Source: a virus. From it: a DNA stretch of 64,000 bases. A program made the position numbers and the translations under genes. The stretch lies in the IMG/VR virus record IMGVR_UViG_3300026290_000001. One strand, given 5' to 3'. Of the stretch, positions 6,692 to 47,331 are shown piece by piece (the stretch's first letter is position 1; every line of letters begins with the position of its first letter). The notes below the pieces were generated by a model. It saw nothing but the letters and a program-made list of their open reading frames with translations, did no database searches and was not told where the DNA came from.

Positions 6692-7843
6692 TTAAAAATA
6701 CACGAGGCGAGCGCCGATAACCGAATACTTTTCAGACTCCGAATAACCCACATGCAGCCGAAACGCCCCCGCCTTATCCGCAGCCGACCAATCACCACCG
6801 AAACGCGGCAAGCGCGAAACATTCAGAACCGCGGAATCGGGATAATGCGTGCTTTCGCTTCCGTTTGCTGTTTTGACGATAAAACCCGTTTCCGTACCAC
6901 CTTGTATGTCGTCTATGTAACCGACTATATTCGTTGTCGCACCCTGTCCGTAATTTGTATATCCAGAACCAATATCGTTAAAACTTTCATTGCCGATTAG
7001 GATGTTTCGGTCTGCATCACTAAATAATCCGTCAATCCAATAGTAAATATTACCCCAAAAATCTTCTATGCCACAAAATTTTAATTGTTGTTTTCCTGTA
7101 GTTTCACCATAGAACATACCTTTAGCATTTGTAGCACCCGTATTAACTTTGGCACTATTCCCATCGACATAACCTCTGCCTAAAGCAGTTTGCCAATCCC
7201 TACTCTTAAACATCACCGTACCTAAGACTTGCAACATTAAAAGTTGAAAATAAGCCATTTGGTCATAACCACTGCCATTCGCCTGTGCAATAGTTCTAAA
7301 TGCACCGATAGTTTCATAAGCGGTTGTTATTTTTCCGCTTAAACTTCTTAATTTAGAACCGTCAGAATATCCTAAATAAGCTGAAATGTAACACTTGGCT
7401 TTTTCGGTTGTACCCCTCATATGTGCTAAACATTTATACCCACTATCTACCTTTGCATTAGCATATCTTACATACAAGTCAGTCCCAATGGTTTCAAATT
7501 TCCACCAAATCTTAGGAAATTCAATCATTACGTCACCATCTGCACCACTTGTAATGTCTGCATTTGTCCCGTCAATTTTTTTAGTATAATCGTTTGGATT
7601 TAGATAGTATTGCACCACTCCATTTTTAAGTAAACATGGTTTAATCTGATTAAATGGAAACTTGTCTTGCCAACTACCATAAGAAAAATTGCCATTATTT
7701 CCTTGGGCTGGAGTAAAACCTATTGCATTATCTGTATAGGCTAAAGCAGTTTCGGGGTTGCTATTTGTAGTATCAATTTTGATGCCATATATTTTAGGTG
7801 GTGATTTTACTGGTTTTCTTTTCCTAATTAATGCCTCACCCAT
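6692..7843 (-). CDS. receptor-binding protein with C-type-lectin/FGE-like fold and Mtd-like (DGR-target-type) C-terminus
   Basis: FWGNIYYWIDG resembles the GNVWEW motif of FGE/CLec folds. The C-terminus RFGGDWSAADKAGAFRLHVGYSESEKYSVIGARLVYF parallels the Bordetella-phage Mtd variable region (FGGNWNN..NIGARGV). Locally GC-rich and A-poor. Confidence 0.6.
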   Translation of the reverse strand: MGEALIRKRKPVKSPPKIYGIKIDTTNSNPETALAYTDNAIGFTPAQGNNGNFSYGSWQDKFPFNQIKPCLLKNGVVQYYLNPNDYTKKIDGTNADITSGADGDVMIEFPKIWWKFETIGTDLYVRYANAKVDSGYKCLAHMRGTTEKAKCYISAYLGYSDGSKLRSLSGKITTAYETIGAFRTIAQANGSGYDQMAYFQLLMLQVLGTVMFKSRDWQTALGRGYVDGNSAKVNTGATNAKGMFYGETTGKQQLKFCGIEDFWGNIYYWIDGLFSDADRNILIGNESFNDIGSGYTNYGQGATTNIVGYIDDIQGGTETGFIVKTANGSESTHYPDSAVLNVSRLPRFGGDWSAADKAGAFRLHVGYSESEKYSVIGARLVYF

Positions 7844-11687: not shown

Positions 11688-11747
11688 TAAATATCACCTC
11701 CTCATTAATTAAAAATAGGACTATATATAATTTTTATATTAATAATA

Positions 11748-12128
11748 TTAACTAATATTAATTGTAAGTGTTACGGTAAGAAGCCAGTTTCCACCGGATT
11801 TTGTGCCTAAATTTTCCACCTTCCTATTCAACATAACTCCTCCACTAGAAGCATTAAAAACTCCCCATTCCTGCCATGCAAAATTAGCATCAGTAGTTCC
11901 AAAACTAGATTTAAATACTAACTGATTATTAGTTCTTGTAGGGAAAGTGGCTTCCATGCCCTTTCTTACTTTGTTAGAACTTGCTTGTAAATCAATCTGT
12001 GAAGCTGCAAAAGCAGTAGTAGAATCACCGACTCCGATATGCGAATTTGTCGAATTAAAGAATACGGGTGAATCATCATTAATTATACAAGCTGCTATAA
12101 AATCTCTACCACTATTTGTTAATGCCAT
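11748..12128 (-). CDS. conserved phage tail-associated protein (function unknown)
   Basis: 126 aa with the pattern MALTNSGRDFIA..IGVGDSTTAF..Q.DLQA..NKVRK..ANFAWQEWGVFN..GGVMLNR, recalled from prophage fibre clusters. No named family assigned. Confidence 0.45.
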   Translation of the reverse strand: MALTNSGRDFIAACIINDDSPVFFNSTNSHIGVGDSTTAFAASQIDLQASSNKVRKGMEATFPTRTNNQLVFKSSFGTTDANFAWQEWGVFNASSGGVMLNRKVENLGTKSGGNWLLTVTLTINIS

Positions 12129-12192
12129 TTTTATAATTCCTCCTTAAATTTATATTTGTAAAATAATAAATAATTTAATAAATATTTAAATA

Positions 12193-12372
12193 TTAAATAT
12201 TAAAACCCATATCTTTTAAATTATCTTCTGATGCCATAAAATCATCTTCAGATATAATAACTTCAATGGGTTTTACCAAACCTTTATCAATTTGTTCCTG
12301 TGTTGCCCAATCAGGATATTTTTCTAATCTGAGCGTTGCTTTCATGCTAATTCCCATTTTTTCATTATTCAT
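12193..12372 (-). CDS. small hypothetical protein (59 aa)
   Basis: Not in the ORF track. ATG at 12370-12372 downstream of AAGGAGG; translates MNNEKMGISMKATLRLEKYPDWATQEQIDKGLVKPIEVIISEDDFMASEDNLKDMGFNI*. Confidence 0.4.
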   Translation of the reverse strand: MNNEKMGISMKATLRLEKYPDWATQEQIDKGLVKPIEVIISEDDFMASEDNLKDMGFNI

Positions 12373-12435
12373 AAAATCTAATAATTACCTCCTTATTTTT
12401 CTAGTATATTTATATTAATAAAATAATTAATATCT

Positions 12436-12942
12436 TTATTCTTGATAGACGAACCAAATGTCCCCATCCTCACCGTCTTCATTACTAGGTTGTACAGTAG
12501 AAAATATAAAATGGTGTGCAGAAGTTTGTATTATATCTTCAAGTGTTTCTTTAATATCATAAGAACCACTACCATTAGATTGAAAACTACTATAAATCCT
12601 ACTTGCGGGTATATAAACTCCACCACTACCATAAAAAGAAAATTGTAATATACTTCCACTTACATCAGGATGAAAATAAACGTATCCATATACATAATCT
12701 ACTTTATATGTACCAATTTTACTTTCTGTGTCTAATGTAGGAAAACCATCAACAATTTCATACCACTGGTAAGTTTCCAATCCAAAATTACCCATGACCT
12801 GAACTTTATTTTGCCTATGCGGAATTTCTGATAATATTACTAATCCATTTATTATTTTTTTATATTCACTTAATGAAACTAAAGGTTGCTCATTATTACC
12901 TCTTCGTATTGAAATAAAAGGATCATAAAAAATTTGATTCAA
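12436..12942 (-). CDS. tail/baseplate-associated protein
   Basis: TTG start after GGAGGTG. 168 aa with YKVDYVYGYVYFHPDVSG, resembling N-terminal anchor domains of fibre/baseplate proteins. Call rests mainly on position. Confidence 0.45.
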   Translation of the reverse strand: MNQIFYDPFISIRRGNNEQPLVSLSEYKKIINGLVILSEIPHRQNKVQVMGNFGLETYQWYEIVDGFPTLDTESKIGTYKVDYVYGYVYFHPDVSGSILQFSFYGSGGVYIPASRIYSSFQSNGSGSYDIKETLEDIIQTSAHHFIFSTVQPSNEDGEDGDIWFVYQE

Positions 12943-13104
12943 AATTTATCACCTCCAACCTAATTTTTCAAAAAATAGAAAAATCAAAAATGTTCAAAAA
13001 TTTATCTTCTGTTTTCTCTTGTTTTCTTCCATTTACTCTGTTTTTCAAGCACAAAATTTGAATAAAAGGAATATTTTATTGTTGAGCCAAGAACACTCGT
13101 GACT

Positions 13105-14397
13105 TCAGTCATGAGATGAATTGGCTCTGTTCTGTTCATATATAATCCATGATTTTCTTGCATTAATTCTTTGCATGTTAGATATTTTCGGTGTCTTCAT
13201 ACCTCTGGGTGCATTACTAAAATCTATTTTTTCACCATCTATACCCATAAGAATGGCATAACCCGTAGACATTCTACCTTTAATAAAATATTCATTACCT
13301 ATATACCTTACTTTATCAAACTTCCTAAATCCTTCTATTTTACCTGTAGGTATCTTCTGATGACTTCTTACTCCTTTTGCCTGTTGGTAATCGCCTTTAG
13401 GGATACACTTTTTTAATACAGCTTTTTCAGTTTTAAAGCTTACATCAATTAACCCTATATCTTCAATATTATTTAAACAGGCAATAGCTACAGCATCGTA
13501 GTAATGCTCTTTTGGTAATCCCATTAGCTGTCTATGTTCTTTGGTAATAAATCCAAAGGTTTCTTTTGCATTTGGTAGCTGTCTTAATAATTGTTGTCTT
13601 ATACTATTCATCTGTGTTGTGTGTTTTAATTGTCCTTTAATTTTACCATTCTTCTTTAATTTAATTCCTCCTTTGTGCAAACTATTATGACAAGTTTTAC
13701 AAAGTGTAATTAAATTTTCTGCATCATCTGAGCCACCATTTTTTCTAAAAACTATATGATGTACCTCTAATCTGCTGTCTTTACTTTTTCCTTTGCAATA
13801 CTGGCAAATATATTTATCTCTACTTAATACATAAGCTTTAGTATTAGCAAATCCATAATTAGTTCCTTTTTGATAAAGCCATTTATTACTTAATACTGCT
13901 GGATTTTTTAAAGCATGTGGGTCAAATGTTGCTGTTTCTATTATTATATTTGTAATGGGCATTATTGATTTTGCAAAATCAATTTCTTTTAAGTGTGAAT
14001 TAATTTTACTTGTCATTGTAGGAGAAAATCTATCTTTTTTAATGCTGTTTTTCCTATTATTAAATCTAGGTTCCCTATATCTAGTTTTCCTATTCCTTCT
14101 AGTTCTCCTATATTTAGCTCTTTTGTCCATTTTGTCAGATATATCATTTCTAATTTCTACTTCTGATATATAATACACTTCATTTTCGTCATTTGCTACT
14201 GCACTTCCTATTTTACTACTACCAGTATCAATTCCTAAAGTTAAATCTTGTGTATAGTCTGTAGCATGATATAGTAATTTAATTGTAAATGGAGTTCTTC
14301 TTATGCATTTTGCTTTACCATCTTTTAACAATAATCTTGCTATTGCTGGTTTACAAGGCATTAAAGGACTCCCATCTTCATTAATTACATAAACCAT
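13105..14397 (-). CDS. iscB: IscB RNA-guided endonuclease (PLMP-RuvC-bridge helix-HNH-RuvC)
   Basis: Domains in order: PLMP (SPLMPCKPAIARLLLKDGKA), RuvC-I (LGIDTGSSKIG), Arg-rich bridge helix (RAKYRRTRRNRKTRYREPRFNNRK) and RuvC-II (IIIETATFD). Then HNH (CQYCKG..EVHHIVFRKNGGSDDAENLITLCKTCHNSLH), RuvC-III (EHYYDAVAIA) and a C-terminal beta domain (FDKVRYIGNEYFIKGRMSTGY). Confidence 0.9.
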   Translation of the reverse strand: MVYVINEDGSPLMPCKPAIARLLLKDGKAKCIRRTPFTIKLLYHATDYTQDLTLGIDTGSSKIGSAVANDENEVYYISEVEIRNDISDKMDKRAKYRRTRRNRKTRYREPRFNNRKNSIKKDRFSPTMTSKINSHLKEIDFAKSIMPITNIIIETATFDPHALKNPAVLSNKWLYQKGTNYGFANTKAYVLSRDKYICQYCKGKSKDSRLEVHHIVFRKNGGSDDAENLITLCKTCHNSLHKGGIKLKKNGKIKGQLKHTTQMNSIRQQLLRQLPNAKETFGFITKEHRQLMGLPKEHYYDAVAIACLNNIEDIGLIDVSFKTEKAVLKKCIPKGDYQQAKGVRSHQKIPTGKIEGFRKFDKVRYIGNEYFIKGRMSTGYAILMGIDGEKIDFSNAPRGMKTPKISNMQRINARKSWIIYEQNRANSSHD

Positions 14398-14681
14398 AAA
14401 ATCAAATCCTTTCGGATAAATACTCTGCTTAAAAGCAGGTTATGCGTATCTATATACTATTACCATATATAGAATTCGTCCTCATCTCGACAATGATAAA
14501 ATAGCTTATATGTATATCACACCGAGCCTTACCCTCCAACTCTACTTAGTGATATACGATAGAGCAATGGTCTGATGCGTCAACCAAAGGTATCATAACT
14601 ATTCTATCGTAGTATAAATTTCTCTATACTAAGTCTGGTGAACTTAGACTTTAGAAGCCTCCGACTTTAGTCGGGGGTAGT
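14398..14681 (-). ncRNA. candidate IscB omega-RNA scaffold
   Basis: Non-coding and visibly GC-richer than its surroundings, directly upstream of iscB. Minus-strand helices: CCCCCGAC/GUCGGAGG, AAGUCU/AGACUU, long-range CUACGAUAGA/UCUAUCGUA, CUGCU/AGCAG, and AUCC-GAAA-GGAU just before the start codon. Confidence 0.6.
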
Positions 14682-14927
14682 TCACTCTATTTCAGGATTG
14701 ATAGATAAATCATCTTTGCTTGTACTATTTACATTAGATAAATTATCTTCATTGGACAAATCATCATTAATAATTTGACTTAATTCGTCTATTTTAGAAC
14801 TTAATTTGATAATCTCTATCTGATACATATTATTTTGTAAACATAAAGTGACTACATCTAAGGGCAAATTACTATTGTTTATTAACTCTGCCAGTTTAAT
14901 ATTAAAATCACTTATAATAAAAATCAC
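14682..14927 (-). CDS. hypothetical protein
   Basis: 81-aa acidic ORF in the minus-strand tail array. Its TGA stop (14682-14684) directly abuts the omega-RNA-like region. Confidence 0.4.
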   Translation of the reverse strand: MIFIISDFNIKLAELINNSNLPLDVVTLCLQNNMYQIEIIKLSSKIDELSQIINDDLSNEDNLSNVNSTSKDDLSINPEIE

Positions 14928-14984
14928 TTCCTTTATATTATTTTTTTATCTTATTATATTGTTATTTTTTATCTTACTATCTTG

Positions 14985-15305
14985 CTATATTGTTATCTGC
15001 GCTTTTATTTCAATCCTACAAGTGTTATTAAAAATATCTTTGTTAATATTTATTACTTTTCCATCTAATAATCTATTTATCTCATTTTCGTATTTATCAA
15101 TAAAAACCACATCGATTTTATTATCTAGATTTAATTCTAAAAAACTACAAACATCTGAACTTTTATTTGTTGGGATTTGCCCTATAAATCTGTGATAATA
15201 AATATTTTCCATTTCATGATAATAAACATCTAAAGTTCCTTGTTGAAAATCGTCTGAATAGATATGGTTGTCTAGGCAATTAAATTTTATTTTTAATTTC
15301 ATCAC
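14985..15305 (-). CDS. hypothetical protein
   Basis: 106-aa ORF in the co-directional tail array. No motif recognised. Confidence 0.4.
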   Translation of the reverse strand: MMKLKIKFNCLDNHIYSDDFQQGTLDVYYHEMENIYYHRFIGQIPTNKSSDVCSFLELNLDNKIDVVFIDKYENEINRLLDGKVININKDIFNNTCRIEIKAQITI

Positions 15306-15335
15306 CTTCTTTCAAGTTTATTTATTTTTATATTG

Positions 15336-16262
15336 TTATTGAACTCCGTTTAATTTATCTTCAAGTGTTATAAAATATGAACCATACACTATATCACCTG
15401 GAATCCTATCTGTAATCCCTGTTGAATTCATATTTCCTATTGCTGTTCTTGCAATATTAAATTTCAAAGCAGTTAATGTTTTATTGCTAGATGAAACTTT
15501 TGCATTAGTTATATGATAAGATGTTCCACCTACTGTTACATATTCAGTTAAACCTTTGTAATTCCTAAACTCTACTATTTTATCAACAAACGAATTCCAT
15601 CGATCCCATGTCAAAGTTGTTACTGCACCATGATTATTGAAAGCATTTCTTTCTGCTGTAGTCCAAGACCAATTAGTAGGACGAGATTTTGAAGTAGTTA
15701 AATAAGTATAACCAGACCAATCCGAAACCTCATAATTATAATTACGATCCCTTGCTCTACATCTAAATCCATATTGTGTATTTGGTTGTAAATTATTAAA
15801 TGTGTCTGAAGGAGAATATGGTGAAGCAGTAATTCCATTAGTGCATTGAATATCATAAACATTAGCATTAGATACATTAGAATAGTTTATAGTAATTGAA
15901 TTAGAAGATATTGATGAACTAATATAATATGGTGTAGACAATTTTGATCTTGCTGTAGTTACATATATTGTATCTATTAAATACCAAGTTCCGTTCCATT
16001 TTCCAGATACTGAAACTTTATATTCAGTATTAGGTGTTAATTTTTGATATAAAGGAGGACTAGGCATTGAATTATAAATATCGTGCCATGTATTATAAGT
16101 AGAATTGGTTGATGTCCAATTATTCCAATATACATACTCTTGTGTACTTGACTTTACAAGCACAATCTCAAATCCACCATAATCTTTTGCAGGATATGTT
16201 AATTCAGTAACATTGATTCGCATAGAATTGGAAGTTACATTATTGGCATATATTCTAGCCAT
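15336..16262 (-). CDS. tail protein with two fibronectin type III-like domains
   Basis: Two FN3 signatures (LTPNTEYKVSVSGKW..YVTT and LQPNTQYGFRCRARD..WSGYTYLTT). Confidence 0.55.
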   Translation of the reverse strand: MARIYANNVTSNSMRINVTELTYPAKDYGGFEIVLVKSSTQEYVYWNNWTSTNSTYNTWHDIYNSMPSPPLYQKLTPNTEYKVSVSGKWNGTWYLIDTIYVTTARSKLSTPYYISSSISSNSITINYSNVSNANVYDIQCTNGITASPYSPSDTFNNLQPNTQYGFRCRARDRNYNYEVSDWSGYTYLTTSKSRPTNWSWTTAERNAFNNHGAVTTLTWDRWNSFVDKIVEFRNYKGLTEYVTVGGTSYHITNAKVSSSNKTLTALKFNIARTAIGNMNSTGITDRIPGDIVYGSYFITLEDKLNGVQ

Positions 16263-16345
16263 AAAATCACCTAAATTTCTTTATAATTGAATAAATTATT
16301 TAAAAAAGAATAATAATAATTAATAAGCAAAATAGTTAAATAGTA

Positions 16346-16391: not shown

Positions 16392-16991
16392 ATGAAAGGA
16401 TGTATAATAATGAAAATTAAAAACTTATCTTATCTGTTTATTGGTTTGCTAGTTGGGTGTTTATTTCCCATTCAATCTTTATTTGCCGAACAACCTATTA
16501 CATTAATTATCAATGGTAAAACAATTACTAATGCTTCACCACAAATAGTTTCAGATAGAACGTATGTACCTTTGAGGGTAATATCCGAAGAATTAGGTGC
16601 AACAGTTGAATGGGACGGAGTAAATAGGGTAGTTAGGGTTAATAGTGGGGATGGACAAAAAATTGAAAAGATTAATCAAAATCAAACTCAAAACAATAAT
16701 GATAATAGTAATGTGGAGAGCAACCCTAGAGATAATATCAATTATATTAGTAGTGATGATATGGAAAAATATTACGAAAGAGATACAAATAAAGGTTTTG
16801 TAAAAAATCGTTGGGTAGATGGTAAATATTTTATTGACTATGATAGAAAAATTACACGTTTTGAAGATTATGAATATTATTATGATAGAGAAAGAGATAT
16901 ATTTTATTGGGCAGATTATAAGGCAATTTTAATCTTTGGAGAAACAATAAAAGATTATCCTAAATATAAATTTAACCAAATACAGCAGTAG
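16392..16991 (+). CDS. secreted lipoprotein with copper-amine-oxidase-N-terminal-like (stalk) domain; moron
   Basis: Only plus-strand gene in the tail module. Signal peptide with lipobox LLVGC (the likely start is the second ATG at 16410). Domain motif ITLIINGKTI..PQIVSDRTYVPLRVISEELGATVEWD. Has its own promoter and overlaps the convergent tail gene by 20 nt. Confidence 0.7.
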   Translation: MKGCIIMKIKNLSYLFIGLLVGCLFPIQSLFAEQPITLIINGKTITNASPQIVSDRTYVPLRVISEELGATVEWDGVNRVVRVNSGDGQKIEKINQNQTQNNNDNSNVESNPRDNINYISSDDMEKYYERDTNKGFVKNRWVDGKYFIDYDRKITRFEDYEYYYDRERDIFYWADYKAILIFGETIKDYPKYKFNQIQQ

Positions 16992-20652: not shown

Positions 20653-20688
20653 TTAAAACAAAACAGAAGGGGAGTAGATACCCCTTCT
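20653..20688 (-). terminator. intrinsic terminator between tape measure and Dit
   Basis: Minus strand reads TAGAAGGGGTATCTACTCCCCTTCTGTTTTGTTTT: an 8-bp GC-rich stem overlapping the TMP stop codon, followed by a U-run. Confidence 0.7.
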
Positions 20689-23600
20689 ATTTACCAAGTT
20701 TACTCATTCCATTATTTATCCGTTTAAAGAAACCATCAACACCTTTTTCTGTGTTTTCTACTTTATCTATATGAACATTCATATTATAAGTTACGTTACC
20801 TCCACCAGCAAACTGTAATTGTGGAGTTGCATTGGCAATTAATTTTTGCATATTAGGAATTAGATATCTTTCAATATTTTTTGGTGGAATTAAAATTTCA
20901 TTTGTTAGTGCTTTGATTATATGTTCATTGGCACTGGTATTGAAAAATTTATTAAATTTATCAACAAAACCAAATGATTTATCTCCGACTATACCACCTT
21001 CATGATATATCCTAATTTGTCTTTTCTTTTCATCCCATTCTACTTGATGACCTAATGCTTCTGCAACTTCCCTGATAGAAAGATATGTTGTTCCGTCAAC
21101 ATTTTTAGCTGGTTTAAATCTCTTTCCACCAATTATAATTGTCTGGTTTTGTCCATAACCTTCCCAATCAGCAGATGCTCCTAAAAGTGATGCAAGAAGT
21201 CTAGATTGCATAATTGCTCTATTATTGACAAGTTCAAAAGAACCAGAATCCAATACTGCCATAGGTTGTCTACCAGATGTGTTAGAACTAGGATTAGTAC
21301 TTTCCAAAGAGGGAATAGACATATTCGCACTATTTGCACTTTCTAATAATGCTAATGCCTGTTCCATTTTTGTAATTAAATTAGCACTAATACTATTACC
21401 AATAAACTCTAAATTGCCATTTACAAAAGTTTTAAATTCTGCAAAAGCTGATTTAACTTTATCAATATTACCATTTATAATATCAGAACGAATTTGGGCA
21501 AACTTTTGTTCGTCATTAATTAAATCGTCATAGTGTTTTTCGGTTTCTCTTTTAATTCTATCCAACCTATCTTTTTCTAAGTTAAGTTTAGTATCTTCTG
21601 CTTTTTTCTTTGCATCAATATCTTTTTTATAAGCATCTAATTGGTCTTTAAGATTTTCTTTACGTAAATCAATTGAATGGTCATGTTGATATTCATTAAT
21701 TTCATCCTCTTGTTCTGCCAATTGTTTTATTAATTCTGCTTTTTTTGCTTTTGCTTCAAAAGAATCATCTAATGATAAAACGTCAATATTTTTTTGAGTT
21801 TCTAATATTGCTTTTTGTTTCTTTTCCAATTCACGATTATAATCATGCTCATTTTCTTCTCTATCTAGTGCTTTGATTCGTGCATTGATGTAATCTTCAA
21901 ATTGTTTTAATTCATCATCAAGATTATCAGTTGCTTGTTTATGACGTTTTTCTTCTGCTTTCATTTGTTCATCTATGGCATCTAATGCAACTTGTTTTTG
22001 TTTTTCATAGATATTTTTATAGATAGAGATGATTTCGTCTGCTATGGATGCTAGTTGTTGTTTGATAGAGAATTGGAGATTGATATATTCTTGCTTTAGT
22101 TGTTTTAAAGTATTTATCAATTCTTGTTTTTGGTCAGCATTGTATCTATCACTTGCTAATTCCTGTTGAACTAATGCTATTTTATTTCTTAAAATATTAA
22201 CACTTTCAATATTAATTTGATTTTCTCGTTCTAATAATGCAATATATTCAGCAGACCCTTTTTCTAATAAAGACATTTCATTTCTAAGGTTTTCTTTTTC
22301 TTGAGTTAAATCAGATAGTTTAATATCTTCAATTGATAAATTAATTTTAAATTCAGCAAAACTCAAATCTCTTATTTCATCATCTATACCTTGAATTTCT
22401 TTTTTAAGACCTTCTGCACTATCTTTGAGTTTTTTAAAATCTTCAATCGCTTTTGCAATTTTTTCATTCTTTATATCAACTTCAATTGTATCTGTTGAAC
22501 CAGACATTATTTTGTTAAAGTCAGATTCAGACAACCCTTTTCCAATATAAGACCGTAGATTCTGTTCTGCTTGTTTTAGACTTGAATCAAAAGTGTTATT
22601 TATATCTAAAAGCAGGTTTTGTTTTTTTTGTAATAAAAGTATCATTTGGTCATATATTTCTGTTTTTTGTTCAAAAGAAGTTACATCGTCAAGTTGATCT
22701 TTAAAAGTTTCTATTTCTCTGTTAATTGCTTCGAGTGCTTCTTTCCAAACTTCAAAGGTTTTGGTAAAGGATTTGGAGGATTTAGAGGAAGAACCATATC
22801 TATCTAAAGAACTAGATACATTAAGATTTTTAAACTTAGATGCCATATCTCTAGTGGCTTTTTGAAATTCAGCATAATCTTTAAGCATCTGGTTTGTTTT
22901 AGAATCAACAGCTAAAGCACTACCGCTTTCAATACGTCTAAAATCACCCATACTCGAAGGATTTACTAATAGCGTACCTGCATTAAAAGCATCAAAATAT
23001 TTCGCCCATTCAGAACCTAATTTGCTTATTAATTGCAATTCAATTGCTTCTCTTGCTTGAGCTAAATTTGCCCATTGAGTTACATTATTGCCATATAATT
23101 TTGATAAATGATTAAATAATTCAGCATGGTTATTTTTAACACTGTTATAGAAATTAATATCTTGTTCTTTAGTTTTTATAAAGGCATCATAAATTGCATT
23201 TTGGTAATCTTCTGTGTCTTTGACAAGTTGTTGTCTTAATTTGGACTCATCTTCAAGTAGAGGAATATAATCTTGATAATCAGATATTATTTTTTCTATT
23301 GAAGATTGAGTAAGACCTTTGTCAGATAATTCATCAAGAAAACCTTTTAGGTCTTTTATTTTAGATACATTGTCTTTGTAAGTGGTTTGAAAATCGGAGA
23401 GAGCTTTTTCATATTGATTTAAAGTATTAATCGCATTTTTTGAATCAATAGTAGAAGGATATAGTGATGCAAAATTAATAGCAAATTCTTTTAAATCGGG
23501 ATTACCTTTAGTTAATGTATTAATTAAATTAGTTATTTCCTTAGATGTTTTTGATAATCCATCTCTATTTTTCTTAGAATCATCGCCACTATTAATAGCA

Positions 23601-26600
23601 GAAGTTAATTTATTATATTGTTCAATTAAAGAATCTAAATCAGAATTAGCAACTTTAGTAGCAAAATCACTTAATGCTTGTTGTTGAGTTTCTATATCTT
23701 CGGGTTGTAAAGCAAGTGATTTAGCAAATTCGGAAACAACTAATTTGGCAGAATCAGACATTTCCTTACCATTAGATTCTAAAGTTTTAATGGTTTCTTG
23801 CGCTTCGTATTCTAAATATTTTTGTTTGTTTTTAGAAAGATTATATATTTCTTCTTGTTGTCTTTGATATATATCTTTCCAATCTTCTAATTTTCTGAGG
23901 TTATACCATTCAGTTCCTTTATTATTATCAATCATTAATTGATATTCTTCTATACGTTTTTCTGCGGTGTCTCTGAGGTTAATTGCTTTTTTAATTTCTT
24001 TATTAGTTTGTTTATCTGATGCTTTAACTTTAAATTCTAATAATTCCTGTTCTTTTTTTAATTCTTCATCTAAAGCCAAAATTCTTAGTTTAATTACTTC
24101 TATAGAATCAGAATAAGCTTCTCCTTCAAGATTAATACCAGTAGCAGATACACCATATTTATCAACAAGTTCTTTTTGAATTTCTAATAATCGTTTCTTT
24201 TCTTCGGTAGTTGCGGTAAGATTTTTCTCTTTATCTTTAAGAGTTTCATATTCAGAAGTTAATTCTTTTAACCCCTCTTTTTGTTGTTTTAAATTTTGTA
24301 TTTGATTTTGACTTGTTTCTATTTGTTTTTGTTGTTCTTCTCTATGTTTTTTAGTAGCATTAGTGAGTCCATAAATAGCAACCATTGCAGTTGTTGCAAC
24401 AACTGCCAATAATCCTAATGGATTTGTTGCCATCGTTGCTTTTAAAAAATTCATTGCAGCAGTAAGTCCTTGTGTTGTTGTCAATAATGCTAAAAGGGAA
24501 ATATTGGCAGCATTAGTAGTAGTAATGAATGCGATCATTGCTTTTATACTAGAAGTAATAGCAGTTCCTTTCCAAATTAAAAAAGCCGTAGTTAAAAGTG
24601 CTACAACAACTTCTGCATTTCCAAGAACTTCAACTAAAGTTGTCATAGCAATTACAAAACCTTTAATTACGTCAGAATTTAATGCTTCTTGCCATTTCCC
24701 CATTACTGTGTTTTTGAATTGTGCAGATTTTGCCTCAATTGATTCCATATACTTTTCGTTTTCAATTAAAGCAGAATTTGTCGAATTTAAGGCAGTAGTT
24801 AGAGAGTCCTGCATATCCTTGTAATTAGTCATCATAGCCATTACTATGTTTCCTTGTCTTTTTCCTGCGACAAGTTCCGACATATTAGCCCTCTGTACGT
24901 CTGTAAGTTTTTCCCAAACTAAGGCTAATTCTAACATAATGTCATAGGTGGATTTAAAGGTATTTTCATCTTTGCGAATTTGAATACCAATATTTTTAAA
25001 TGATTCTTCAAGTTTAGGAAGATATTCTAAAACATCTTCACCATCTTCGGATACACCTCTAAGTCTCATTGAAATTGTTTTGAGGGCTGTTCCTACGGTT
25101 GCTGGGTCTTGTACCACTGCGTTAGCAGCAGTTATCAATGCAACTGCTTCTTCCATTGTATTGCCAGCAGAATATAATGAAGCAGCAGATCTACGCATAG
25201 CTTCACCAATACCTGCACTTGAAATTGCAAAATTATTTCCAACTTCATTATAAATATCTACAATTTTCTGTATATTTCTACCTTCTTCATCTACTGCAAC
25301 ACCAAAACCTTTTACTGCTGAAATAATTGCTAGACTAGCTTCTTCTACTCCAATATCACCTACATTAGAATATAATAATGCTTGTTTTGCTAATTGAGCA
25401 GATTGTTCAAGGGAATAACCCAAACGGGCAAACTCTGTCGTACTATTAATAACTTCCACACTAGTTTTTGCCAAATTTCGACCTATAGCATTTGCCTCAA
25501 GTGAAAATTTATTTAATGTTTCTCTAGTTTCGTCAGTAACTTTATTCAAATTTGTGAGAGCAGTATCTATGTCGATGATACTTTGAATACCATTTTTTAC
25601 TGCTGTTATTGTTTTGATTATTACATCACCGATGAGCAACCAACTAGCGAATTTCTTGCCCGCTTCAAGTAAACTTTGTCCAAAAAGTCCAGTATATTTA
25701 TTAGCATCTTGAATTTCTTTCTTATAAATACTTGTGGTAGTAGAAATTTCTCTAAGTTTAGAATTGGCTTCTGCCATATTCTTACTGAAATTTTTATTAG
25801 TTGGATCAAAACCACGTATTTGAGATTCAAGAGTATTTAAAGCACTTAAATTATCACCAACAATAAACTTTCCATCTACACCTCTCATGCCCCTGATTCT
25901 ATTTAATAAATCTTGTTGAGCAAGAGATTGTTTATGTATTTCACTTGTTAACTTTTGCTGTTGAATAATATCTTTATCAATATTTTTTGCTTTTATTGTA
26001 CCAACATTCCGTAATGTTTGTTCTCTAATTTTTTCAAGTTGAATTAATTTTTCAGCTTCTATTCCTTCTATTTTGGTTTTTTCACCAATGTCAATTTTTC
26101 TTCTAATAATATTATTATATTGACCTTGATGATAGGTTATTTGTTTAGTTAATTCTTTTGCCTGTTCTGTATCTTTATTTCCTAAACTATGATAATCTTG
26201 TCTTAATTTATTTAATTGTGTTAAATGCTGTTTGGCTTCATTAAAATTTTTATTTTGTGTATTTTTAATAGTTTCTAAATTAGTTTTTTCAAGATTATCA
26301 TAATAATCTGCCATTTTAACCAGTTCATCTGGTTTCTTTGTCATATCACCTACAGTTTCTTTAACTCTCTGTGACCAATATTTGGACTGTTCTTTATTTA
26401 ATTTTTCTAACTCTGTACGTTGTTTTTTATAATTAATAGTAGTTTCTGTTACTTTTTTATATACTTCGTCTGTTCCTGCTTTTAAATGTTCAATTTGTTT
26501 TACACTCTCACCATTTGCTTTTGTCCACTCTTTAGTTCTTTCAGTAATTTTTGCTTCAGCATTTTCAATTTGTACATATTTTTCTTTATACTTGTCTAAA

Positions 26601-26731
26601 CCCTTACTATCAACATCAATTTTTATTTTAGGATTAACTCGTTGTTCAATATCTTTTTTTACTTTATTTAGTTCTGATTCTGATGCTCTATCTAATAACG
26701 TTTTTATTCGGATTACAATATCATCTGCCAC
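20687..26731 (-). CDS. tail tape measure protein (2014 aa)
   Basis: Long coiled coils and a TP901-type core (NEVGNNFAISSAGIGEAMRRSAASLYSAG). Central hydrophobic helices. The C-terminus carries a copper-amine-oxidase-N-like motif (IIIGGKRFKPAKNVDGTTYLSIREVAEALGHQVEWD). Confidence 0.95.
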   Translation of the reverse strand: MADDIVIRIKTLLDRASESELNKVKKDIEQRVNPKIKIDVDSKGLDKYKEKYVQIENAEAKITERTKEWTKANGESVKQIEHLKAGTDEVYKKVTETTINYKKQRTELEKLNKEQSKYWSQRVKETVGDMTKKPDELVKMADYYDNLEKTNLETIKNTQNKNFNEAKQHLTQLNKLRQDYHSLGNKDTEQAKELTKQITYHQGQYNNIIRRKIDIGEKTKIEGIEAEKLIQLEKIREQTLRNVGTIKAKNIDKDIIQQQKLTSEIHKQSLAQQDLLNRIRGMRGVDGKFIVGDNLSALNTLESQIRGFDPTNKNFSKNMAEANSKLREISTTTSIYKKEIQDANKYTGLFGQSLLEAGKKFASWLLIGDVIIKTITAVKNGIQSIIDIDTALTNLNKVTDETRETLNKFSLEANAIGRNLAKTSVEVINSTTEFARLGYSLEQSAQLAKQALLYSNVGDIGVEEASLAIISAVKGFGVAVDEEGRNIQKIVDIYNEVGNNFAISSAGIGEAMRRSAASLYSAGNTMEEAVALITAANAVVQDPATVGTALKTISMRLRGVSEDGEDVLEYLPKLEESFKNIGIQIRKDENTFKSTYDIMLELALVWEKLTDVQRANMSELVAGKRQGNIVMAMMTNYKDMQDSLTTALNSTNSALIENEKYMESIEAKSAQFKNTVMGKWQEALNSDVIKGFVIAMTTLVEVLGNAEVVVALLTTAFLIWKGTAITSSIKAMIAFITTTNAANISLLALLTTTQGLTAAMNFLKATMATNPLGLLAVVATTAMVAIYGLTNATKKHREEQQKQIETSQNQIQNLKQQKEGLKELTSEYETLKDKEKNLTATTEEKKRLLEIQKELVDKYGVSATGINLEGEAYSDSIEVIKLRILALDEELKKEQELLEFKVKASDKQTNKEIKKAINLRDTAEKRIEEYQLMIDNNKGTEWYNLRKLEDWKDIYQRQQEEIYNLSKNKQKYLEYEAQETIKTLESNGKEMSDSAKLVVSEFAKSLALQPEDIETQQQALSDFATKVANSDLDSLIEQYNKLTSAINSGDDSKKNRDGLSKTSKEITNLINTLTKGNPDLKEFAINFASLYPSTIDSKNAINTLNQYEKALSDFQTTYKDNVSKIKDLKGFLDELSDKGLTQSSIEKIISDYQDYIPLLEDESKLRQQLVKDTEDYQNAIYDAFIKTKEQDINFYNSVKNNHAELFNHLSKLYGNNVTQWANLAQAREAIELQLISKLGSEWAKYFDAFNAGTLLVNPSSMGDFRRIESGSALAVDSKTNQMLKDYAEFQKATRDMASKFKNLNVSSSLDRYGSSSKSSKSFTKTFEVWKEALEAINREIETFKDQLDDVTSFEQKTEIYDQMILLLQKKQNLLLDINNTFDSSLKQAEQNLRSYIGKGLSESDFNKIMSGSTDTIEVDIKNEKIAKAIEDFKKLKDSAEGLKKEIQGIDDEIRDLSFAEFKINLSIEDIKLSDLTQEKENLRNEMSLLEKGSAEYIALLERENQINIESVNILRNKIALVQQELASDRYNADQKQELINTLKQLKQEYINLQFSIKQQLASIADEIISIYKNIYEKQKQVALDAIDEQMKAEEKRHKQATDNLDDELKQFEDYINARIKALDREENEHDYNRELEKKQKAILETQKNIDVLSLDDSFEAKAKKAELIKQLAEQEDEINEYQHDHSIDLRKENLKDQLDAYKKDIDAKKKAEDTKLNLEKDRLDRIKRETEKHYDDLINDEQKFAQIRSDIINGNIDKVKSAFAEFKTFVNGNLEFIGNSISANLITKMEQALALLESANSANMSIPSLESTNPSSNTSGRQPMAVLDSGSFELVNNRAIMQSRLLASLLGASADWEGYGQNQTIIIGGKRFKPAKNVDGTTYLSIREVAEALGHQVEWDEKKRQIRIYHEGGIVGDKSFGFVDKFNKFFNTSANEHIIKALTNEILIPPKNIERYLIPNMQKLIANATPQLQFAGGGNVTYNMNVHIDKVENTEKGVDGFFKRINNGMSKLGK

Positions 26732-47255: not shown

Positions 47256-47331
47256 TGGAGCCGAGTATAGGATTTGAACCCATAATCTGTTGTTTACAAG
47301 ACAACTGCCTTATCAATTTGGCTAACCCGGC
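47256..47331 (-). tRNA. tRNA-Thr (anticodon UGU), CCA encoded
   Basis: Minus strand folds by hand as GCCGGGT-TA-GCCA..AGGC-A-GTTGT-CTTGTAA-ACAAC-AGATT-ATGGG-TTCAAAT-CCTAT-ACTCGGC-TCCA. It has a 7-bp acceptor stem, a TTCAAAT T-loop and an anticodon loop with U33 followed by UGU. Confidence 0.85.

Follow-up and report, generated by a model that had tools for sequence, protein, structure and literature searches.

We analyzed a 64,000-nucleotide stretch of the IMG/VR virus record IMGVR_UViG_3300026290_000001 (the whole stretch is hereafter the window), which carries a gene for the RNA-guided nuclease IscB in the distal tail module of an SPbeta-like phage of ~135 kb. This gene is part of a non-autonomous ISC-type insertion sequence of the IS200/IS605 family whose cargo consists only of an omegaRNA gene and iscB. 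The best overall explanation of our observations, and one that we consider well founded, is that the guide RNA of this element targets alleles of the insertion locus that lack the element (empty alleles). The role of the element is most likely selfish retention or homing through cleavage of such alleles.

The ends of the element were fixed by comparison of the occupied locus with empty alleles from three relatives of the phage that lack the element (L037, L038, and L115). A megablast search of positions 11700-16300 against 50,697 GenBank phage records returned no match and IMG/VR held only a near-identical contig; empty sites were therefore sought in metagenome contigs, through a scan with the protein encoded downstream of the element (168 aa) and an exact-protein look-up with the protein encoded upstream (81 aa). 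In the empty sites of L037 and L115, ...CCTGAAATAGA is joined directly to ATAAAATATTCC..., and the junction of L038 is identical except that ATAAAATATTCC is preceded by ...CCTGAAACAGT. The two flank sequences are separated by 1606 bp in the window and the junction is seamless in the empty sites, showing that no target sequence was duplicated. Identity of the flanks to those in the window was 88% upstream and 97.6% downstream for L037, 84% and 97.6% for L038, and 96.4% and 95.6% for L115. The flank comparison that had been proposed in an earlier note on this DNA, written from the letters alone, thus revealed a presence/absence polymorphism that defines both ends. DNA similarity to IscB relatives on other viral contigs (72-90% identity) is likewise confined to window positions 14687-13071, with the nucleotide similarity of the copies in L003, L005, and L117 bounded by 14686/14687 and 13071/13072.

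The structured region upstream of iscB, which the earlier note had pointed out, is identified by Rfam as an omegaRNA of the HEARO type (RF02033 at 14685-14475 on the minus strand; 121.7 bits against a gathering score of 83, E = 1.2e-24, model positions 1-211 of 211). In an alignment of five sequences (the window and four relatives), 28 of the 85 predicted base pairs were kept through compensatory changes, and the conserved helices extend nearly to the start codon of iscB. Collectively, these observations indicate that the region is the cognate, full-length omegaRNA. The family-conserved part begins exactly at GTGAACTACC, and the sequence 5' of GTGAACTACC is different in every copy. Taking a guide length of 16 nt from published IscB work, the guide of this element is TCAATCCTGAAATAGA, and its sole match within the window is its own insertion site. 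In L037 and L115, the empty allele matches all 16 nt perfectly and continues with ATAAA, with L115 identical over 50 nt, and the corresponding target in L038 carries 5 mismatches among the 16 positions (CTAGTCCTGAAACAGT). In the occupied allele the guide match is followed by GTGAAC and the ATAAA motif is thus absent. As is characteristic of homing endonucleases, the predicted recognition site (guide match plus ATAAA) is intact in the alleles that lack the gene (L037 and L115) and interrupted in the occupied allele. If it behaves like characterized IscB systems, the IscB ribonucleoprotein would be expected to cleave L037 and L115 at their empty sites and to spare its own genome, and it would probably spare L038 as well.

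The protein encoded by the element is a bona fide IscB. The earlier note had read the IscB domain order and a complete set of catalytic residues from the translation, and Pfam, NCBIfam, and alignment to solved structures agree with it. The RRXRR model of Pfam, the domain that contains the PLMP motif, RuvC-I, the Arg-rich bridge helix, and RuvC-II, is matched over its complete length by residues 2-178 (E = 2.2e-54, model 1-174/174), the HNH model is matched by residues 198-242 (E = 3.6e-14), and the NCBIfam equivalog model for guided_IscB (NF040563) scores 351.4 bits against a cutoff of 175; all three profile matches are significant. When phmmer was run against the Protein Data Bank (PDB), the best solved structures were OgeuIscB and other IscB chains (~1e-43). 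In this alignment with characterized IscB proteins the D/E/H/D and HNH residues correspond: D57 (GIDTG), E154 (IIIETA), and H213/H214 (HNH) fall on catalytic positions of OgeuIscB, and H298/D301 (HYYDAV) fall on its HYLDA motif. These residues, together with N228, H237, and the zinc-binding cysteines of IscB (C198, C201, C233, and C236), are invariant among 39 homologs. Residues 310-430 are also conserved across the family, and the C-terminal 120 residues alone had no meaningful match among PDB sequences. An AlphaFold2 model built with 39 close homologs was poor (mean pLDDT 51.6) and predicted, at low confidence, a beta-rich C-terminal region; the top Foldseek matches of this model were all IscB, IsrB, or Cas9, which lends support to family identity only. 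The ratio of nonsynonymous to synonymous substitution rates (dN/dS) between iscB and its relatives is 0.08-0.23, indicating that the gene is under purifying selection.

A type II CRISPR-Cas9 identity or CRISPR context was considered and rejected, given that no CRISPR repeat array is located within several kb of iscB, that the NCBIfam Cas9d model scores only 36 bits against a cutoff of 375, and that the protein comprises only 430 aa. A defense-system context was also rejected, as PADLOC yielded generic HNH matches only.

The ends of the element are those of an IS200/IS605 transposon, with subterminal hairpins at both ends and with neither terminal inverted repeats nor a target-site duplication. 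The hairpin at 13084-13127 that the earlier note had described is real and corresponds to the subterminal hairpin of the left end (LE; -11.5 kcal/mol as a DNA fold). It recurs, always followed by ATAAA, in 11 related sequences that represent 10 distinct loci, and has a GACTTYAGTC core in common with the hairpin of the right end (RE). TTTAT/ATAAA is present at all 13 of the distinct LE junctions that were examined in the family, and ATAAA is kept in the empty alleles directly 3' of the guide match.

As the earlier note had stated, the window lacks an IS200-type tnpA: tblastn with IS608 and IS200 TnpA queries gave a best E value of 0.64 in the window, and the Y1_Tnp profile had zero matches among 48 other open reading frames (ORFs). 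The absence of tnpA makes this copy non-autonomous. Among relatives with 72-80% identity, a Y1 tnpA gene overlaps iscB or comes right after it in L004, L006, and L008 and is located ~90 bp downstream in L118. The same element was found in L117 with 95.7% nucleotide identity over 1620 bp, at an unrelated locus of a phage-like contig and with a different 5' flank and guide, which shows that the element has transposed and has not been inherited vertically alone.

The insertion coincides with the stop codon of the upstream phage gene. The earlier note had described that stop as abutting the inserted region, whereas the stop (14682-14684) is located within the element. Empty alleles end in GAA TAA and the occupied allele ends in GAG TGA, and both encode ...PEIE*; since GTGA replaces A-TAA, the product of the 81-aa gene is unchanged by the insertion. 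The same takeover is observed in L117 (2010-2013), where an ORF of 396 aa ends in CAG TGA and the empty site would read CAA TAA, and L003 (79-82) is probably a further case. In-frame A-TAA stops account for 7 of the 846 ATAAA sites in the window; takeover in 2-3 of 10 copies therefore looks enriched, albeit in a small sample. Stop-codon takeover as a general rule was nevertheless rejected, as it fails in the 7 other copies. These are intergenic, and those in L119, L121, L007, and L004, the flanks of which were checked, are located just downstream of a co-oriented gene.

Table 1. Features of the IscB element and its immediate surroundings (coordinates are those of the window).
Feature	Position	Strand	Remarks
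Whole non-autonomous IscB element (ISC / IS200-IS605 family)	13080..14685	-	1606 bp; 13081-14686 equally possible (1-nt ambiguity, one A)
omegaRNA scaffold	14398..14685	-	HEARO match 14475-14685; conserved helices reach ~14415
Guide-encoding flank	14686..14701	-	16 nt TCAATCCTGAAATAGA, 5' of scaffold; final bases of the 81-aa gene
iscB coding sequence	13105..14397	-	430 aa; every catalytic residue in place
Transposon right end (RE)	14657..14685	+	Subterminal hairpin CCTCCGACTTTAGTCGGGGG at 14657-14678, then TAGTTCAC to the cleavage point; DNA fold
Transposon left end (LE)	13080..13127	+	Subterminal hairpin 13084-13127, overlaps the iscB stop codon
Insertion-site / target-adjacent motif	13075..13079	+	TTTAT 5' of LE, equal to ATAAA in the iscB sense, 3' of the target
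Upstream 81-aa phage gene	14682..14927	-	Stop TGA (14682-14684) supplied by the first bases of the element, GTGA
Downstream 168-aa phage gene, YomF_N-like	12436..12942	-	137 bp past LE

These features suggest how the element may function. It is inserted immediately 3' of TTTAT, on the stop codon of the 81-aa gene and in the same orientation, and transcription could run from this phage gene straight through the guide and the scaffold. IscB would bind the omegaRNA, the 5' guide of which would, going by characterized IscB systems, correspond to the flanking 16 nt, and the complex would cut DNA in which the guide sequence is followed by ATAAA, namely the empty allele. The occupied allele would be protected because GTGAAC replaces the motif after the target. 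Repair of the break from an occupied copy would restore the element after TnpA-mediated excision. Where occupied and empty phage genomes share a cell, the empty genome would gain the element through the same kind of repair or else be destroyed. The original insertion would have required a Y1 TnpA acting in trans, and relatives of the element encode one.

Several points weigh against this interpretation. Cleavage by IscB and expression of the omegaRNA at this element are predictions, and a scan for promoters and terminators yielded 29 promoter-like sites where 30.9 were expected, with none above chance. The C-terminal domain that would interact with the target-adjacent motif could not be confirmed from sequence and its model is poor (pLDDT 51.6). 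The empty alleles could be either ancestral or products of excision, and the data fit both. Moreover, only one occupied haplotype is known, and homing cannot be told apart from a single transposition followed by clonal spread; for the same reason, co-conversion tracts, a signature of homing, are not assessable.

The earlier note had suggested that this IscB might act as a homing nuclease. This idea gains ground in that the empty alleles of L037 and L115 match the guide and ATAAA, although homing itself is still something that we infer. Homing from phage to phage is a plausible hypothesis. In its strongest form, this idea holds that the element is a TnpA-independent, RNA-guided gene drive between phages, in which IscB cuts the empty alleles of related SPbeta-like phages during co-infection or in a lysogen and the element is copied in, with its GTGA terminus, which is conserved in the family, mimicking A-TAA; we regard this proposal as tentative. 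If true, the GTGA terminus would let the element occupy stop codons in gene-dense phage genomes while leaving proteins unchanged and being transcribed from the host gene. It is also conceivable, though we would not presume it, that the element is a passive passenger whose intact IscB only re-installs it after TnpA excision from the same genome and has no effect on phage competition or gene flow. Re-installation is the only role of IscB that has been shown experimentally (Meers et al., 2023), tnpA-bearing relatives are present in similar phage contigs, and every occupied copy that was retrieved represents one haplotype. However, the window is without tnpA, and where there is no excision there is nothing to restore, yet iscB is under purifying selection; furthermore, matching empty alleles circulate among related phages, and spread independent of TnpA has been reported for plasmid-borne TnpB (Mears et al., cited in PMC13565253).

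A more distant alternative is that the phage has domesticated IscB as a weapon of interference competition, retained because it destroys related phages, co-infecting or resident, that are without the insertion, while the element itself is copied rarely if at all. The target is indeed present only in relatives without the insertion, a precedent exists in the form of an intron-encoded nuclease in phage-phage competition (Birkholz, 2024), and the 5 target mismatches of L038 are as expected of an escape allele. Those differences are, however, consistent with the general 84% identity of that flank, and the intact ends and hairpins and the presence of the element at other sites in other phages are those of a mobile element and not of a fixed phage gene, which makes domestication unlikely. 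Lastly, the activity of the element is a prediction only and the relative in L008 has a frameshifted iscB, as might be the case if the element were an inactive or decaying relic or a non-cutting RNA-guided regulator comparable to TldR, which derives from TnpB. This is highly improbable given that the RuvC and HNH catalytic residues are all present and invariant, the omegaRNA is full length, dN/dS is low, and the guide matches its own insertion site only. We therefore favor a non-autonomous element that targets its empty alleles.

The motif of OgeuIscB is NWRRNA, whereas that inferred for the element in the window is ATAAA; the window protein is also shorter than OgeuIscB (430 versus 496 aa) and phage-borne, and its C-terminal 120 residues are unmatched in the PDB. 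In other respects the system resembles OgeuIscB-omegaRNA (PDB 7UTN and 7XHT) and other characterized IscBs, with which it shares the domain order (PLMP/RRXRR, the split RuvC, bridge helix, and HNH insert) and the catalytic residues, and, as in OgeuIscB-omegaRNA, a HEARO-type omegaRNA with a 5' guide lies directly upstream. In the ISGst IscB/TnpB elements of Geobacillus stearothermophilus, the omegaRNA is bounded by RE, which lies on the omegaRNA side of iscB, TTTAT/TTCAT located 5' of LE serves as the motif for TnpA as well as for the nuclease, and there is a bias toward co-orientation with the upstream gene (Meers et al., 2023). IscB with its omegaRNA is established as an RNA-guided nuclease with a role in re-installing excised IS200/IS605 elements, and ~98% of iscB loci are non-autonomous (Meers et al., 2023). 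The element described here is alike in its RE-bounded omegaRNA, in TTTAT 5' of LE, in its co-orientation with the upstream gene, in its reliance on TnpA in trans, and in a guide directed against the donor joint. It differs in that ISGst is chromosomal and present in multiple copies per genome while the window element is a single copy in a phage, and in that the empty allele is observed here in natural phage genomes and was not made in the laboratory.

Association of IscB with viruses is not new. More than 16% of HEARO/IscB-bearing fragments were reported to be viral or prophage by Goltsman et al. (2022; PMC9755519), who report the association alone, with no analysis of insertion sites, empty alleles, or guide targets in the available portion. 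Free-standing and intron-encoded phage homing endonucleases (T4 Seg/Mob and I-TevI) and the TnpB drive on plasmids (Mears et al., 2025) offer a parallel: here, too, conserved phage genes flank a nuclease gene whose product would be expected to cleave the allele without it. Unlike those of T4 Seg/Mob and I-TevI, the target of the window element would be read by an RNA guide that the insertion site sets automatically, and the element has transposon ends and can thus reach new sites, although a homing role is predicted only. OMEGA RNA-guided homing has been shown for the restoration of chromosomal donor sites and, in the case of TnpB, on plasmids, where its spread was independent of TnpA; in a 2026 review, homing into co-infecting phages is tabulated as a theoretical possibility (PMC13565253, citing Mears et al.). 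The locus is thus an unusually well-resolved natural instance of an element type that is already known. It offers a natural test case, with an intact IscB and omegaRNA, exact ends, an inferred motif, and occupied, perfectly matching empty, and mismatched alleles (one of the latter), and a compact IscB of 430 aa with an AT-rich motif is a candidate editing enzyme. Apart from its value as a test case, the finding agrees with current knowledge.

The exact IscB protein was detected on 14 contigs from several samples, and the two loci that were retrieved, from different samples, carry it at the same site as the window. These loci, which cover 7.3 kb and 6.2 kb around the insertion in metagenome contigs of 135-138 kb, are 100% identical to the window. 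The window is 99.97% identical to the IMG/VR contig UViG_3300009671_000358, and IMG/VR otherwise contains only relatives of the tail proteins with at most 36% identity. More broadly, >7500 proteins match this IscB at E <= 1e-30, and >120 clusters are at least 70% identical. The neighbors of the copies that were inspected are phage-like and include terminase, tape measure, helicase, methyltransferase, RecA/RecU, dUTPase/YopX, Toprim, and HNH homing endonuclease genes. PHROG families 119 and 2214 match the protein (4e-52 and 2e-40), and tblastn identified matches in 34 GenBank phage records, ~30 of which span most of the protein. Among species-representative genomes, the closest matches were a 1-kb contig of a metagenome-assembled genome (89% identity) and a Clostridiaceae metagenome-assembled genome (65%).

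The genes upstream of the insertion encode a 2014-aa tape measure protein, Dit, and a 957-aa Tal-like protein, in keeping with the location in a tail-gene array that the earlier note had proposed. The region is a tail module, but the immediate neighbors can be called tail genes only by their position and by precomputed matches that label them YomF_N and YOMG_N (SPbeta-like); our own Pfam and PHROG scans of these two neighbors gave no functional label. The downstream 168-aa gene is 92-98% identical in relatives without the element. The earlier note had also taken the AT-richness of iscB to suggest long residence in this phage, a view that base composition does not support: GC content is 31.3% in the element and 27-28% in its flanks, and it is 30.7-31.7% for the element in other phage contigs. 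Given this similarity elsewhere and the 84-98% identity of the empty-allele flanks, composition is uninformative with respect to age. In L039, a fourth relative of the phage, 227 bp of unrelated sequence carrying another small ORF (808-1033, corresponding to window 12957-14993) take the place of both the 81-aa gene and the insertion slot; the locus is variable even where the IscB element is absent.

Additional observations were made on the relatives of the element. A Y1 tnpA and a 496-aa TnpB-like gene (phrog_506) are located at 3363-5273 of L003, 1.7 kb downstream of its IscB element; it is possible that this tnpA-tnpB element is a source of TnpA in trans. Solo LE hairpins, each preceded by TTTAT and in the opposite orientation to the iscB of the same contig, are present in L007 (9399-9434) and L008 (262-297) and probably belong to other IS605-like elements with the same end and hence the same TnpA. 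A second GTGAACTACC scaffold start at position 648 of L004, 430 nt upstream of the true omegaRNA start at 1078, may be a solo right end or an omegaRNA remnant. The iscB of the tnpA-bearing relative in L008 (~7000-7270) is frameshifted near residue 345, reflecting either a pseudogene or an assembly error.

Elsewhere in the window, a 23-nt tandem repeat (2.9 copies; 14933-14998) is located between genes, immediately upstream of the 81-aa gene. Inside the tail module, an antisense ORF of 199 aa (16392-16991, plus strand) encodes a Cu_amine_oxidN1 domain, and the same domain is present at the C-terminal end of the tape measure protein (20687-26731, minus strand). A Pfam sweep of window ORFs outside 8.7-27 kb identified three tyrosine recombinases, three N6/N4 DNA methylases, RadC, a CoiA-like nuclease domain, a DUF4379 zinc-finger protein, an amidase, and a holin. 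The phage also carries a tRNA-Thr gene with anticodon TGT at 47256-47331 on the minus strand.

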